DNA from: an uncultured Planctomycetales bacterium
GTDB taxonomy: Bacteria; Omnitrophota; Gorgyraeia; Zapsychrales; JANLHA01
Direction of reading: 5' to 3'
Assembly: GCA_964374105.1 (NCBI GenBank)
Contig: CAYJXI010000007.1
Span: 13,096 to 77,095, forward strand
DNA: 64,000 nt
The notes beneath the pieces are model-generated. The model was not told the origin of the DNA, did no database searches, and saw only the letters and a list, made by a program, of their open reading frames with translations. Shown one piece after another: positions 41,235 through 60,534 of the stretch. How positions within the stretch are numbered: the first letter of the stretch is position 1; each line of letters starts with the position of its first letter. The position numbers and the translations under genes are program-made.

Positions 41235-41253
41235 ATAAAAGAATAAAAGGTGA

Positions 41254-41285
41254 CAGTCCCGCCAAGGCGGGACTGTCATCTCAAT
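41254..41285. repeat. GACAG-core hairpin ggtgacagtcccgcc-aa-ggcgggactgtcatc between the regulator and pilB
   Basis: Perfect 15-bp stem with no U-tract. It gives the spurious mirror ORF starts MTVPP... on both strands. Confidence 0.45.
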
Positions 41286-45088: not shown

Positions 45089-45214
45089 TAAAGTGATTTT
45101 TGCCTGAAATTTAATTCATTTTTATTATATTGATTCCCCTGCCTATTTGATGTTTAATAGGCAGGGGGATTTTCGTTTTTGAATAATGCATTTGTTAAAT
45201 AGGGAAGATAAAGA

Positions 45215-54899: not shown

Positions 54900-56267
54900 C
54901 TAGCGAGAATGTTGAATGGGGAGGAAGACGGAAAATAGTGAACCCTTCTGAAGTTCACTTTCGACAGAAACTTTACCTTTATGAACTTGCACCAGATGTT
55001 TGACTATGGCGAGACCCAGACCGGTACCCCCTAAGTCTCGGGATCGACCCTTGTCCACTCGATAAAACCGCTCAAAAATTCGATCGAGATGTTCAGATCC
55101 TATCCCAATTCCTGAATCTTGAACATTGATACGGATATATTCATTTTCTTTTACGGCTTTGATTGTGATGATCCCTCCCGGAGGGGTGAATTTAATAGCA
55201 TTATCCAAGAGATTTAAGAAAACTTGTTCCATTTTAGGAGGATCAATAAAGACCGAAGGAAGACCTTCCGGGATATTGACAATGATTTTGTGTTGTCGGC
55301 TTTCTATTTGATCTTTGCATAAATGGATCACGGGTTCAATAATAGAATTGAGGGAGGTTTTTTCCAGGTTCAAGGTGATTTCCCTTGTTTCGATAGAGGA
55401 CAAACTTAAAATATCATTGACTAAGTTCTCCAATCGATGAGTATGCCTTTGGATAATATCTAAGAATTTCTGCGCTTTCTCTTTATCTTTTAAGGCTCCA
55501 TCCTTAAGTGTTTCCACAAATCCTTTAATAGAGGTTAAGGGTGTTTTTAACTCATGGGAAACATTGGCCACAAACTCGGATCTTAAGCGTGCCAATTTTT
55601 TCATTTCTGTGATGTCATGAAAGACGGCCACCACTGCCGACAAGTTCCCTGAATCGGATATGATGCAGGAGACTTGCATAGAAAATTGGCTTTCTTGCAG
55701 GGAGATAATCGTTATCTCCCTCCTTAATGATTTTTTTTCAGCCATGGCCTCTTTGAGTAAGGAATTGATTTCTTCATTCCGGATCACTTCCCAGTAGGGT
55801 TTACCAATGATATCTCGGGAGCGAAGGTCTAGCATCGTATAGACCGGAGAGTTCATCAGGATCACCCTTTCATCCTTCCCTATGACAATAACCCCCTCTA
55901 CCATACTGGATAGAATAGCCTTGAGTTCATTTTTGTCTTGAGTGATTTCCTTGATTTTATTCTGCAAATCAATCGACATAAACTGAAGGTGTTGGGCGAG
56001 TTCTCCTAATTCATCTTTTCTTCCGAGAGAAATACGACCTTTAAATTCTCCTTGCCGTATTTGTTGGGCCGCATTTTGTATTTCAAGAAGGGGTTTTAAA
56101 TAAACTCGAGTCATAATCCAGTCCAGGATCAGGGCCATGACCGCCCCGATGAAAATCACAATAACAAACTCAAGAGAAGAGAGTTCAAGGATCAATCCTA
56201 ATATAAAAAGACAGACAAAGATGATGCAGGAATTAAAAAAAAATAATTTTTTTACACCCTTATTCAT
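54900..56267 (-). CDS. phoR: Phosphate regulon sensor histidine kinase PhoR
   Basis: TM, HAMP, PAS, HisKA (SHELKTPLTSIKGFVETL) and HATPase (DSGIGIG, GGTGLGLAIV). It overlaps phoB by 8 nt. Confidence 0.85.
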   Translation of the reverse strand: MNKGVKKLFFFNSCIIFVCLFILGLILELSSLEFVIVIFIGAVMALILDWIMTRVYLKPLLEIQNAAQQIRQGEFKGRISLGRKDELGELAQHLQFMSIDLQNKIKEITQDKNELKAILSSMVEGVIVIGKDERVILMNSPVYTMLDLRSRDIIGKPYWEVIRNEEINSLLKEAMAEKKSLRREITIISLQESQFSMQVSCIISDSGNLSAVVAVFHDITEMKKLARLRSEFVANVSHELKTPLTSIKGFVETLKDGALKDKEKAQKFLDIIQRHTHRLENLVNDILSLSSIETREITLNLEKTSLNSIIEPVIHLCKDQIESRQHKIIVNIPEGLPSVFIDPPKMEQVFLNLLDNAIKFTPPGGIITIKAVKENEYIRINVQDSGIGIGSEHLDRIFERFYRVDKGRSRDLGGTGLGLAIVKHLVQVHKGKVSVESELQKGSLFSVFLPIQHSR

Positions 56268-56964
56268 GATCCTGGTCTTCTAAATCCTTAAAACGATAAC
56301 CCACGCCTCTCACTGTTTCTATCAAATGGGCAGCAGTTTTAAGTTTTTTCCTTAACCCACGGATATGCACATCTACCGCACGATCCACAATAAATTTACC
56401 TTCTTTCCAAACTTTATCCATGATCTGGTCACGGCTAAAGACGCGTCCGGGATAACGGGAAAGGAATTCTAAAATATTAAATTCGATCATGGTCAAAGTA
56501 ATAGGTTTGCCTTGATAAGTGATTTTGTGTTTGGGAATATCGATCCTTATTCTGGCGATTTCCCGCATTTCCAGGGGAGTTTTATGATCGGTAAAGCGGC
56601 GTAAAATGGCCTTGACTCGCGCGATTAAAACTTTTGGGCTGAAGGGTTTGGTTACATAATCATCAGCTCCCAGTTGGAGACCCACCACCACATCTGATTC
56701 CTCACTTTTTGCGGTTAACATGAGGATGGGGATTGAGCTAGTTTTATTTTCTTGTTTGAGCAAACGGCAAGTTTCAAGACCGTCCATGCCGGGTAACATC
56801 AGATCAAGAATTATGAGATCAACGGATTGGTGCTGTAAAATCTTAACGGCTTCTTCACCGGTATTGACCGCAACAGTAGACAATCCTTCCCGTTCAAGAT
56901 TGTATTGTACTAATTCCACAATATCTTTTTCATCTTCTACAATGAGAATCTTTGCCTTTTTCAT
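56260..56964 (-). CDS. phoB: Phosphate regulon response regulator PhoB (OmpR family)
   Basis: KILIVEDEKDIVELV...LDLMLPGMDG receiver and a winged-helix (LTMIEFNILEFLSRYPGRVFSRDQI). Confidence 0.85.
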   Translation of the reverse strand: MKKAKILIVEDEKDIVELVQYNLEREGLSTVAVNTGEEAVKILQHQSVDLIILDLMLPGMDGLETCRLLKQENKTSSIPILMLTAKSEESDVVVGLQLGADDYVTKPFSPKVLIARVKAILRRFTDHKTPLEMREIARIRIDIPKHKITYQGKPITLTMIEFNILEFLSRYPGRVFSRDQIMDKVWKEGKFIVDRAVDVHIRGLRKKLKTAAHLIETVRGVGYRFKDLEDQDHE

Positions 56965-57297: not shown

Positions 57298-58551
57298 TCA
57301 AAATTTAAAATTCATGTCGGTCTGCCAAAGATGTTCTACGGTGGCCTTTCGGGAATCGATTTCCTCTCCTCCAATAGGTGCACTGCGATAATAATCCAGA
57401 TCTAGGCTGACATTTTTGCCTAAACTATAACTGAGAATAGCCTCGTGTCCCTGAACATGAGTCCTACCGCTGTAAAAATCCGAGTCAGGGAAAATGTCTA
57501 AAACCGCGTTTCTTTCCAGTCGTCGGTAATTATAGGAAAGTTGCCATTGGCGAGGGCCAGCGACTTTTTTATCACCTATCGTGATCCCTAAAAGAAATCC
57601 CTGATCATGTTCATCGGCATTTGGATTATTGATATATTCTCCAAAGAGGCTTAAGTGGGGGAGGGATTGAAGGCCAAAAGGATTAAAGAACATAATTTCC
57701 GACCCTACCGAAAAGGCATCGTAATCGTAAACATAAAGAGAACTGCTATTGACTGTATTGGTGCTACTTGAGTGGGCCAATTGAGAATAGTTTTTGATTG
57801 TTTCAAAGCCGTAGTAAGCCCCGGCCAATTTTAGTTGGGTTTGAGAGTTAGGCGAAAATGTGATACCGGGTTGTACCCCGTACATAAGGGGATCATAATT
57901 TTCGGTTGAGTTTTCATCTAAAATAAAAAATCCGGTGTTGAAAAAGGGTTCCCATTGATCATTGATTTTCTTTTTGAGGTTGGCCCCGGCCCCATCAAAG
58001 GTAATATCGGTATCAAAGATCAAATCCTTCGGGTTCCAAAAAGGCCTGGGAATTTTTCCTCCTGAGACAGCGGCCCAATCGGCAGGGGTGTATTGAGCAT
58101 AGGCATAATCCAAGCGCACATCGGATTTCTCAAAAGAATTTTCCAGTGTCTCATTGGTGGCACGGGGATCGCCTGTTCCCGTGGCCAATCCCAGGGCGGC
58201 TTTCAGTTTGTCATTCACATTTGTTTCAACGCCAAATCTGAGGCGGATCCTTCCTCGATCTCTGGTATTAGTCGATTCCCTTTGTTCATGCTGATAACGA
58301 ACACGTAAGTCTCCCTTAAATTTCATGTCTTGGACCCAAGAGGGGAGGCTGGTTTTAAGGCCTTCCTCCCGTAGTAATTTTTCATCCGTTGCAATTTCCT
58401 CTTTCAATTCCAACGCCTCTTGTTGGGTCAAGATTCCTTTTTCCACCAGTTTTCTAATCAAGGCATCAACTTGTGTGCTATCGGCCATACCAGTGTGGGG
58501 GAGTCCCAGTAACCCCAAAATCGTTAAACTTAAGAGAATAAGTTTTTTCAT
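57298..58551 (-). CDS. Outer-membrane beta-barrel porin, probably phosphate-selective porin O/P family
   Basis: Signal peptide ...GMA|DST, an N-terminal coiled-coil segment, beta-strand-rich body and a C-terminal aromatic (…MNFKF). Sits at the head of the phoBR-pst cluster. Confidence 0.5.
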   Translation of the reverse strand: MKKLILLSLTILGLLGLPHTGMADSTQVDALIRKLVEKGILTQQEALELKEEIATDEKLLREEGLKTSLPSWVQDMKFKGDLRVRYQHEQRESTNTRDRGRIRLRFGVETNVNDKLKAALGLATGTGDPRATNETLENSFEKSDVRLDYAYAQYTPADWAAVSGGKIPRPFWNPKDLIFDTDITFDGAGANLKKKINDQWEPFFNTGFFILDENSTENYDPLMYGVQPGITFSPNSQTQLKLAGAYYGFETIKNYSQLAHSSSTNTVNSSSLYVYDYDAFSVGSEIMFFNPFGLQSLPHLSLFGEYINNPNADEHDQGFLLGITIGDKKVAGPRQWQLSYNYRRLERNAVLDIFPDSDFYSGRTHVQGHEAILSYSLGKNVSLDLDYYRSAPIGGEEIDSRKATVEHLWQTDMNFKF

Positions 58552-58902
58552 ATTCCTTCCTCCTTCAATAGGGATTGTTAAAATAAAACTTCCTTGACCA
58601 ACGAATATCTTCTTCTACACTTTTTAAACTGTCTTGAACGTAACCATCAATGGGATTCCCATTCTCAACATATTGAAGAATCTTAAGCAGAATTTTAATA
58701 TTGGTATCCAAGACGTTGACTAGGAGATCTTCTTTGAGGATGAAATATCCTTGATTTTCATATTCCCTTTTCCATTTTCTGCCAGAAGTATAATGGACGA
58801 GATTAAAAATAGAATAAAGGTTCTGTTAATTTCGGGTTAAGTAGACAACAGCAATAGAGAAGAGAGAAATGTAGCTAAGCAAGATGATTAGGCCTGGGGT
58901 TT

Positions 58903-58931
58903 GCGCTTCCCCGACAAATTCCTTGACAAAA
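58903..58931 (+). promoter_or_regulatory. Strong sigma70-type promoter TTGACA-N17-TATATT
   Basis: Exact -35 consensus at 58903..58908, a 17-nt spacer, and -10 TATATT at 58926..58931. Confidence 0.45.
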
Positions 58932-59009
58932 AAGACCTTTTTCTTTATATTAGAAAAGTTCTGAATAATGGAGAAGATCCTCAAATATTCGGATAGGCAA
59001 TATGCCATT

Positions 59010-59046
59010 GGCGGCTGTATGAGTAGCCGCCTTTTTATTTTTTAAA
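59010..59046 (+). terminator. Rho-independent terminator (ggcggct-gtatgagt-agccgcc + tttttatttttt)
   Basis: 7-bp GC stem plus a long U-tract, about 80 nt upstream of the GGDEF gene start. Confidence 0.55.
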
Positions 59047-59124
59047 TTTTTTGTTTGAAGATAAGAAGCTTTGTATTAAACCACGGGTTGTAAGTTAACT
59101 GCGCAGGGGTTAGCGACTTAAGTA

Positions 59125-60534
59125 ATGTCTTATTTTGCCAATAATAAAGAAATTAATCTCCTCCATCCGGAAGCTCAGAAAATTTTCCGTAATCTGATTG
59201 AATCGGTGAAAGCCGGAATCTATATGGCCGATTCTAAAGGGAAATTATTCTTTGTCAATCAGACCTTTGTGGATATTTTGGGTTATAACAATAAACAAGA
59301 GGTTTTAGGACTGGACTTAGTCCAGGTTTTATATACGGACTTAGAAAAACGAAATGTCTTTTTGAAAACGATGGAAAAGGTGGGTTTTGTACGTGATGAT
59401 GGAGTTAAGATTATGCGAAAAGATGGATCGATGGTGAATGTGTCTACCACCAGCCATGTTATTCGAAATGAAAAGAATGAAGTGATTGGCTTTGAAGGGA
59501 TCATTCAGGATATCACCGAAAAAAAAGAATTGGAAGATAATTTAAAAATCGAAAAATTCAAATTGGAACAAATCCTCTCTTTCGAGGAAAAAATCCGCTC
59601 GATTCATAAATTTGATGAATTGGTCAACTTTATTGTGGAGAAAACAACCCAGATTCTCAATGCGGCAAGATGTTCCCTTATGCTTGTGGAGGAGGGTACC
59701 CAAGAATTGTCGATTAAGGCGGCCATTGGTTTAGATAAGGAAGTGATGAAAAACACCCGAGTTAAATTAGGAGAGCCGATTGCCGGGCTGGTGGCCCAAG
59801 AGGAAGATCCTGTTTTGGTCAAGAATATTGAATACGATCAGCGTTTCAAAAGGGGTAATAAACCCTATTATCGAGGCCGATCTTTTATGAGTGCTGCTAT
59901 CAGGCAGGATCATAAACTGATCGGAGTCGTCAATGTCTCGGATAAAAATCCCCAGAATTCTGATAATTTCAATGAACTTGATTTGAAAATTTTAAGTACC
60001 ATTGTCCGTCAGGCGGCTGGGATCATTGAGAATGCCAAATTGTACAATGAATTGGAATATCTGTCTAAAATGGATCCTTTAACGGATCTTTATAATTATC
60101 GAAGTTTTGTTAAGAGTTTAGATCAGGAAATCAATCGTCTTAAACGCTATCCCGGCAGTTTAAGTTTACTGATGATAGACGTGGATGATTTTAAGACCTA
60201 CAATGACACCCACGGACATCTGGAAGGAGATATCCTTCTAAAGAAACTGAGTGACGTTTTCAAACAGCATTTGCGTTCGGTTGATACCATCTGTCGCTAT
60301 GGAGGAGATGAGTTTGCGGTGATCCTGCCCGGTACGGATAGCCAGCAGGCGAAGCTGGTTGCCGAAAAACTCAGGAAAAATGTGGAAGAGGTTCCCTTTA
60401 AAGATAAGATCACCTTAAGTATCGGGATTTCTGATTACCAGTCCCATTTAAGCCGGTTTGATTTAACCCGCCTGGCGGATAAAGCCCTTTATCAAGCTAA
60501 ACGAGAGGGGAAAAACCGAATTGGGATTTATTAA
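59125..60534 (+). CDS. PAS-GAF-GGDEF diguanylate cyclase
   Basis: PAS (FVNQTFVDILGY...), GAF (...ARCSLMLVEEG...), and GGDEF with an intact RYGGDEFAVIL active site. Confidence 0.85.
   Translation: MSYFANNKEINLLHPEAQKIFRNLIESVKAGIYMADSKGKLFFVNQTFVDILGYNNKQEVLGLDLVQVLYTDLEKRNVFLKTMEKVGFVRDDGVKIMRKDGSMVNVSTTSHVIRNEKNEVIGFEGIIQDITEKKELEDNLKIEKFKLEQILSFEEKIRSIHKFDELVNFIVEKTTQILNAARCSLMLVEEGTQELSIKAAIGLDKEVMKNTRVKLGEPIAGLVAQEEDPVLVKNIEYDQRFKRGNKPYYRGRSFMSAAIRQDHKLIGVVNVSDKNPQNSDNFNELDLKILSTIVRQAAGIIENAKLYNELEYLSKMDPLTDLYNYRSFVKSLDQEINRLKRYPGSLSLLMIDVDDFKTYNDTHGHLEGDILLKKLSDVFKQHLRSVDTICRYGGDEFAVILPGTDSQQAKLVAEKLRKNVEEVPFKDKITLSIGISDYQSHLSRFDLTRLADKALYQAKREGKNRIGIY

Follow-up and report, generated by a model that had tools for sequence, protein, structure and literature searches.

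Genes and features of the locus

The window, i.e. the whole stretch of 64 kb of DNA that was analysed and that stems from an uncultured Omnitrophota population, carries on its plus strand a gene for a diguanylate cyclase of 469 aa (59125..60534), the PAS, GAF and GGDEF domains of which were assigned by Pfam matches. This GGDEF gene is divergent from a pho-type operon on the minus strand with a porin gene starting at 58551. The space between both genes, given as a divergent region of 570 bp in a preliminary description of the locus, measures 573 bp. It is not empty: a small gene together with its Pho-box promoter occupies part of the minus strand. On the plus strand a promoter and an intrinsic terminator are found in front of the GGDEF gene, and no plus-strand gene lies 5' of this unit.

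The small gene (58565..58761, minus strand) is located immediately 5' of the porin gene. It belongs to a conserved family of 63-65 aa (phmmer E = 2.5e-12 to P0121, plus five more small proteins) with the motif ..EDL.V..L..Q...L.KVL.H.E.GNPIN.YV.ENLK..EKD.RWLRKF, for which no Pfam or NCBIfam model was found. The gene order small gene, Porin_5, PstS is kept in other Omnitrophota contigs. A good ATG with SD sequence is present in the window at 58761. Near 58733-58735, the frame breaks: at TCA AAG the frame that begins with the ATG (MKIKDISSSK) is shifted by one base against the conserved frame (EDLLVNVL...), such that a -1 shift or one extra A is needed to reach the latter. The break is identical in independent assemblies. 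Judged by the sequence, it would represent either a pseudogene with a deletion of 1 nt or a case of -1 frameshifting.

The putative Pho-type promoter of the small gene and porin operon (58787..58841, minus strand) is divergent from the plus-strand unit. It consists of the direct repeats CTTAAC, ATTAAC(A), CTTTAT and TTTTAA every 11 nt (58841-58803; consensus (C/A)TTAAC(A), period 11 nt), followed by the -10 hexamer TATACT (58792-58787). The same arrangement of repeats and TATACT is seen 5' of the small gene in L093, L094, L095/L096, L097 and L098. About 80 nt separate the outermost repeat (58841) from the -35 hexamer (58923) of the divergent promoter on the plus strand. The mRNA of the porin operon is predicted to begin near 58780 and thus would not overlap with an RNA from the plus-strand unit. 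Moreover, relatives having the small gene and the porin show no antisense promoter/terminator unit upstream of them, which argues that the unit is not part of the pho operon. The Pho-box fits the OmpR/PhoB-type response regulator (56260-56964) and the histidine kinase (54900-56267) that are encoded in the same operon.

The promoter of the GGDEF gene

A consensus scan revealed a sigma-70-type promoter on the plus strand, composed of the -35 hexamer TTGACA (58923-58928), a spacer of 17 nt (AAAAAGACCTTTTTCTT) and the -10 hexamer TATATT (58946-58951). The hexamers match the consensus in 11/12 positions, their spacing falls within the usual 16-18 nt, and transcription is predicted to start at about 58958. 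Both hexamers and their spacing had been recognised correctly before, but at coordinates 20 nt too low (58903 and 58926 instead of 58923 and 58946).

The -35 hexamer is preceded by a conserved element (CTTCCCCGACAAATTCC, 58905..58922) which aligns with the GGDEF promoters of two orthologous loci, L088 and L090. The upstream block CTTCCCC.A.A belongs to the conserved part of the promoter. The -35 block is repeated nearly in tandem (TTCCCCGACAAA, then TTCCTTGACAAA); among the compared loci the 12-mer TTCCTTGACAAA has an exact match only in identical copies of the window. Within the spacer the palindrome AAAAAG-AC-CTTTTT is located (58929-58942). Inverted repeats of an A-run and a T-run are likewise seen in the spacers of L088 (AAAAT-CCC-ATTTT) and of L087, the locus of the closest ortholog (AAATT-ATTTG-AATTT). 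Based on their arrangement, the repeats and the inverted repeat of the spacer could represent an operator for a dimeric regulator.

On the two strands of the 64-kb window (128 kb of strand), promoter-like sites of at least 11/12 number just three. Strong terminators, defined by at least 7 pairs, at least 5 G-C and at least 6 T, are equally few, with three on both strands together. The probability of finding one promoter and one terminator within 200 nt on the same strand was roughly estimated as p of about 0.01. This genome seems to contain few canonical terminators, so the one upstream of the GGDEF gene stands out. The other two strong terminator-like sites are located at 41251-41278 (minus strand) and 45132-45171 (plus strand) and comprise 12 and 16 pairs.

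A second promoter-like site of 11/12 (TTGACA-16-TAGAAT, 59231-59258, minus strand) is antisense within the GGDEF coding region. If active, it would generate an antisense RNA over the gene start and the region upstream of it. We rejected it as a real promoter: its -35 hexamer derives from the conserved codons for FFVNQ, and L087 has the -35 but no matching -10. According to the sequence the site is probably fortuitous.

Predicted RNA and terminator

The RNA predicted from this unit extends from about 58958 to about 59040. Its length would be about 85 nt, and not about 100 nt as initially estimated. The predicted fold (-29.8 kcal/mol, z = -4.2 versus shuffles) begins with a 5' stem-loop, continues with a small hairpin and ends with the terminator; the part in front of the terminator alone reaches z = -2.8 versus shuffles. 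The 5' stem-loop (58960..58993, UCUGAAUA...UAUUCGGA) has an apical GAG/CUC stem, and MFE and centroid structures agree on it. The small hairpin GGCA-AUA-UGCC follows at 58996..59006.

The intrinsic terminator is a hairpin at 59010-59031 (GGCGGCUG-UAUGAG-UAGCCGCC; in DNA letters GGCGGCTG-TATGAG-TAGCCGCC) with a predicted energy of -13.6 kcal/mol. The stem of 8-9 bp includes 6 G-C pairs, all pair probabilities are 0.995 or higher, and the U-tract UUUUUAUUUUUU (59032-59043) follows directly after the stem, as expected for an intrinsic terminator. The hairpin and its tail TTTTTATTTTTT are thus found exactly where the preliminary description placed them. The hairpin begins 58 nt past the -10, however, rather than about 70 nt downstream. 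It was also considered that the hairpin might be a bidirectional terminator of an upstream gene. This does not hold, since the flank on the minus strand (AATGGCATATTG) contains no T-run and no gene precedes the unit on the plus strand.

Between terminator and GGDEF start the remaining 5' UTR (59044..59124) is predicted to be unstructured (fold z = +1.2). A consensus scan with spacers of 15-19 nt, which weak promoters or those of other sigma factors could escape, detected no promoter-like site of at least 8/12 in the interval from the terminator to the ATG (59025-59124).

The 3' GCC of the small hairpin may alternatively pair with the GGC which starts the 5' arm of the terminator, making it a weak antiterminator candidate. 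As long as the 3' arm is missing, the 5' arm of the terminator pairs with 59003-59006, at zero energy cost compared to the small hairpin. This alternative pairing is about 14 kcal/mol weaker than the terminator.

Conservation among GGDEF orthologs

Many Omnitrophota encode an ortholog of about 470 aa. The start codon of the GGDEF gene can be assigned from the N-terminus M(x)SYF, which is conserved in these proteins. The closest orthologs are 58-64% identical and form a small clade (P0001-P0005) in a NJ tree, with P0002 from L087 being the closest of all (64% aa identity). When genomes were scanned with the GGDEF protein, even the nearest species representatives, which belong to Omnitrophota, reached only 48-49% identity. 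Three or four Logan assemblies as well as the MAG GCA_947085705.1 contain identical proteins and DNA. A blastn search of the intergenic region against the window and all loci returned only contigs of 100% identity from the same population, hence there is no shallow comparative signal.

The region 58905-58953 of the window is homologous to the sequence directly 5' of the GGDEF gene in L088 (P0003) and L090 (P0005) with z = 11.7 and 8.6 (e.g. window CTTCCCCGACA-AATTCCTTGACAAAAAAGACCTTTTTCTTTATA-TTAG versus L088 CTTCCCCAATAGTATTTCTTGACAAAAAATCCCATTTTCCCTATAGTTAG). In both loci only about 35 nt of UTR separate the promoter from the ATG, and no terminator is found. In L087 the hexamers and their spacing are identical to those of the window (AATTCCTTGACAAA, 17 nt, TATATT; 2807-2835). 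The upstream genes differ from those of the window in all loci sharing the promoter. As the promoter is kept despite these differing upstream genes, it travels with the GGDEF gene. Based on this comparison we regard it as the ancestral promoter of the cyclase gene itself. Given that the genes are only about 60% identical, the promoter (58905-58945) is unusually well kept.

The terminator has a counterpart in L087. There a G+C-rich hairpin of 10 bp (AGCGGCGG..CGCCGCT with TTTTTTGTTTG, 2903-2928) starts 67 nt past the -10 and has a T-run behind it; the ATG (3001) is located 73 nt past the hairpin. In the interval between the two, promoter-like sites reach only 8/12. Hence window and L087 share the layout of promoter, terminator and gene in different neighbourhoods, whereas this layout is absent from L088, L090, L092 and about 90 other GGDEF loci that were scanned. 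In one distant homolog (L035), a hairpin precedes the start by 197 nt. The check for conservation in relatives, as originally suggested, therefore turned out positive for the promoter in L087, L088 and L090 and for the terminator in L087 only. Since L088 and L090 are clade members without such a leader, the leader is dispensable for the gene. According to the NJ tree its distribution would require either a loss in one branch or two separate gains.

When window and L087 are compared segment by segment, the terminator segments are similar (z = 4.9), while the segments in front of and behind the terminator are no more similar than shuffles (z = -0.2 each). The L087 leader likewise consists of a 5' stem-loop and a terminator and folds better than shuffles (pre-terminator part z = -2.3), but the sequence of its stem-loop is unrelated to that of the window. 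A possible remnant of the terminator 3' arm in the UTR of L090 (TAGCTGCCTAATTATCTGTTAAA versus TAGCCGCCTTTTTATTTTTTAAA) was discarded: z = 3.9 is marginal in view of the 12 comparisons made, and no support comes from L087.

In both leaders the 5' arm of the terminator can be tied up in a weak hairpin before the 3' arm is made. Candidates are UGCC/GGCG or GCC[AUUGGC]GGC in the window and AAAACC[AGCGGC]GGUUUU in L087. Simple fold-energy arithmetic assigns -3 to -4 kcal/mol to these competing hairpins, compared to the above energy of the window terminator and -15.8 kcal/mol for that of L087. As the terminators are more stable by about 11-14 kcal/mol, these hairpins alone would be insufficient to block termination.

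Comparison with known RNA families

No Rfam family matched anywhere in the window at gathering thresholds, and a tRNA/tmRNA scan found nothing. With E values up to 10, the leader region and L087 gave only sub-threshold matches driven by the terminator. The best of these is the enterobacterial sRNA Esr41 with 27.7 bits (gathering threshold 102), which reflects a generic terminator alone. For the ribosomal protein L20 leader (23.9 bits, gathering threshold 58.7) the aligned part corresponds to the G+C-rich hairpin and the U-tail.

Riboswitches for c-di-GMP form part of the 5' leader of genes such as those for GGDEF/EAL and related proteins, and in many cases they operate via a terminator. The leader of the window shares the position and the terminator with c-di-GMP-I (GEMM-I) and c-di-GMP-II riboswitches. 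In contrast to their aptamers, its pre-terminator part comprises only about 50 nt and is AU-rich and unconserved, i.e. too small and too variable. In line with the initial impression that no GEMM consensus is recognisable, neither c-di-GMP family was among the Rfam matches. We also looked for a novel riboswitch, but the two leaders from window and L087 (n = 2) share no conserved structured aptamer. Given the lack of conservation in the pre-terminator sequence, nothing indicates a riboswitch aptamer. Moreover, no RNA-only switch and no strong antiterminator were seen in the window leader. The riboswitch-like control that had been envisaged is therefore not borne out.

The general architecture is a familiar one. 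Like transcription attenuators, the locus combines a promoter, a short structured leader, an intrinsic terminator and a gene with no second promoter detected. It differs from known attenuators in that no aptamer, leader peptide, T-box or known protein-binding motif was identified. Furthermore, leaders of this type are seen in two lineages, with a sequence conserved only in promoter and terminator. Terminator-containing 5' leaders are known to release short RNAs, which are catalogued by Term-seq; examples are 5'-UTR-derived sRNAs of the rnTrpL and SreA type.

The target of ANTAR proteins reportedly consists of two small hairpins having hexaloops with A1 and G4, the second of which overlaps the 5' arm of a terminator. 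In L087 this pattern is found: ACC[AUGGAC]GGU and AAAACC[AGCGGC]GGUUUU carry A1 and G4 in both hexaloops, and the second hairpin overlaps the terminator arm. In the window GCC[AUUGGC]GGC is possible at the matching place, but only in a non-optimal fold, and position 4 in the loop of the first hairpin (AAGAUC) is not a G. The pattern is therefore present in L087 and not in the window. A crude scan of the window for an ANTAR-like protein, using one signature motif of the ANTAR domain ([AS]KG plus two aliphatic residues), gave nothing convincing. ANTAR-mediated antitermination is a lead only. In the literature we found nothing on such a leader or on the regulation of cyclases in Omnitrophota.

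A probable terminator-containing leader of the cyclase gene

Promoter, intrinsic terminator and start codon of the GGDEF gene follow each other on one strand, and the layout recurs together with the gene in L087. The elements themselves, the orthologous promoter, the layout in a second lineage and the lack of a detectable downstream promoter are observations. The locus was first proposed to encode either an independent sRNA or a leader. Since the promoter is the conserved promoter of the gene itself, the short RNA would most likely be the leader of this gene, and the orthologous promoter, the layout in L087 and the terminator-to-ATG interval with no promoter detected together favour a leader over an independent sRNA. 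We therefore favour the second of the two options. With a probability of about 0.6 the unit represents a terminator-containing 5' leader of the PAS-GAF-GGDEF gene that also yields a short RNA.

Transcription would begin at the conserved sigma-70 promoter at about 58958. RNA polymerase would produce the 5' stem-loop and the small hairpin and then meet the strong terminator (59010-59043). Most transcripts are expected to end at 59036-59043, giving the RNA of about 85 nt, and only polymerases reading through would reach the GGDEF start codon 81 nt beyond the terminator. In this way the terminator would set, and probably conditionally gate, the expression of the cyclase. We infer that termination actually occurs at this site. 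That read-through is regulated is a conjecture, as the terminator exceeds the alternative hairpin in stability by about 11-14 kcal/mol. Conditional antitermination of the leader is a tentative assumption to which we assign roughly half of the probability of the leader itself. If read-through is regulated, this would most likely involve a protein or another factor, which either stabilises the weak hairpin overlapping the 5' arm of the terminator or acts on the polymerase.

An independent trans-acting sRNA of about 85 nt is the competing explanation with the best standing, yet an unlikely one. The ancestral GGDEF promoter would then serve mainly for this RNA, which would base-pair with other mRNAs. 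The cyclase would be transcribed from a downstream promoter which escaped recognition, and none was detected between the terminator and the GGDEF gene. A promoter and a terminator around a short structured RNA are the standard anatomy of an sRNA. The terminator is strong, the RNA is more stable than its shuffles, and the promoter-terminator unit is also present in L087. However, the body of the RNA is not conserved between window and L087, hence there is no support from a conserved seed or target. No Rfam match was obtained, and neither the window nor the compared loci contain a second copy or relative of the RNA. Moreover, in L088 and L090 the GGDEF gene is driven directly by the orthologous promoter. 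A short RNA would in turn be compatible with the leader if it were a 5'-UTR-derived sRNA.

Alternatively, the leader might contain a constitutive, unregulated terminator, which either damps a strong promoter in order to hold the cyclase low or is a nearly neutral insertion. A conserved aptamer, a convincing antiterminator or a leader peptide would speak against this and was not found, and close orthologs manage without the leader. Still, we regard this explanation as doubtful: the layout persists in two lineages with cyclases that now share 64% aa identity, and both leaders show a structured 5' stem-loop as well as a weak hairpin competing for the 5' arm of the terminator.

A more specific variant of the terminator-containing leader can be envisaged. 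The leader could be the target of a factor-dependent antitermination switch, not described before, that gates the sensory diguanylate cyclase in Omnitrophota. It might work with an ANTAR-like or different RNA-binding protein acting on the CC[A..GGC]GG hairpin, which overlaps the 5' arm of the terminator in both lineages, and maybe it is tied to phosphate, considering the neighbouring Pho-box operon and the order pstB-phoU-GGDEF in L103. We treat this variant as speculative and rather improbable.

The RNA might also be a cis-antisense regulator or type I antitoxin directed against a 60-codon ORF on the minus strand (59008..58826) or against the mRNA of the porin operon. The predicted RNA overlaps the start codon and the first 17 codons of this ORF on the opposite strand; besides the 25-codon frame on the plus strand, formerly named as the only ORF inside the unit, the 60-codon ORF thus overlaps it. 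The minus-strand frame has the best codon-usage score of all six frames and, with one TAA tolerated, extends over 158 codons (p = 0.005). We rejected the complete frame (60 codons, TAA, 86 open codons) as a single pseudogene, since homologs were found just for its final 55 or so residues, and it represents the real small gene plus a spurious ORF. The real small gene (58565-58761) explains the long open frame only partly. The 60-codon ORF itself has no homolog among 5.8 billion or 1.84 billion proteins, no Pfam or NCBIfam match and no SD sequence, its C-terminus is hydrophobic, and its 3' end overlaps the Pho-box promoter. L087 has the RNA unit but no related minus-strand ORF. As the Pho-box promoter (58841-58787) is downstream of the RNA on the minus strand, the operon mRNA would not overlap with it either. 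We thus judge the ORF to be spurious and an antisense function to be very improbable.

Finally, a ribosome-coupled attenuator, in which translation of the 25-codon ORF (58968..59045) would block formation of the terminator, deserves hardly any credit: the ORF does span the whole terminator with its stop in the T-run, a geometry resembling the pyrBI attenuator of E. coli, but as already noted in the preliminary description it lacks an SD sequence, it has no Pfam match, only about 10 nt separate its AUG from the predicted transcription start, and in L087 its place is taken by merely four codons (ATGGACGGTGATTAA) ending well before the terminator, so that we do not consider it a gene.

Implications

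The terminator-containing leader is a new, lineage-restricted case of a well-known kind of element and of ordinary control. It does not constitute a new class of RNA: nothing points to a new aptamer, riboswitch or mechanism, and the leader occurs in two lineages only. To our knowledge almost no cis-regulatory RNAs have been described for Omnitrophota. If the leader assignment is true, the element would be one of very few proposed for this uncultured phylum, and the cyclase would be controlled at the level of transcription elongation in addition to its PAS and GAF sensor domains. Moreover, the presence or absence of a terminator behind one conserved promoter among orthologs provides a small natural experiment on the turnover of attenuators.

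With respect to a physiological context, the ortholog P0010 in L103 (73-2903) is located directly downstream of pstB-like and phoU genes. Together with the divergent Pho-box operon of the window, this gene order hints at a possible link of this cyclase family to phosphate signalling.
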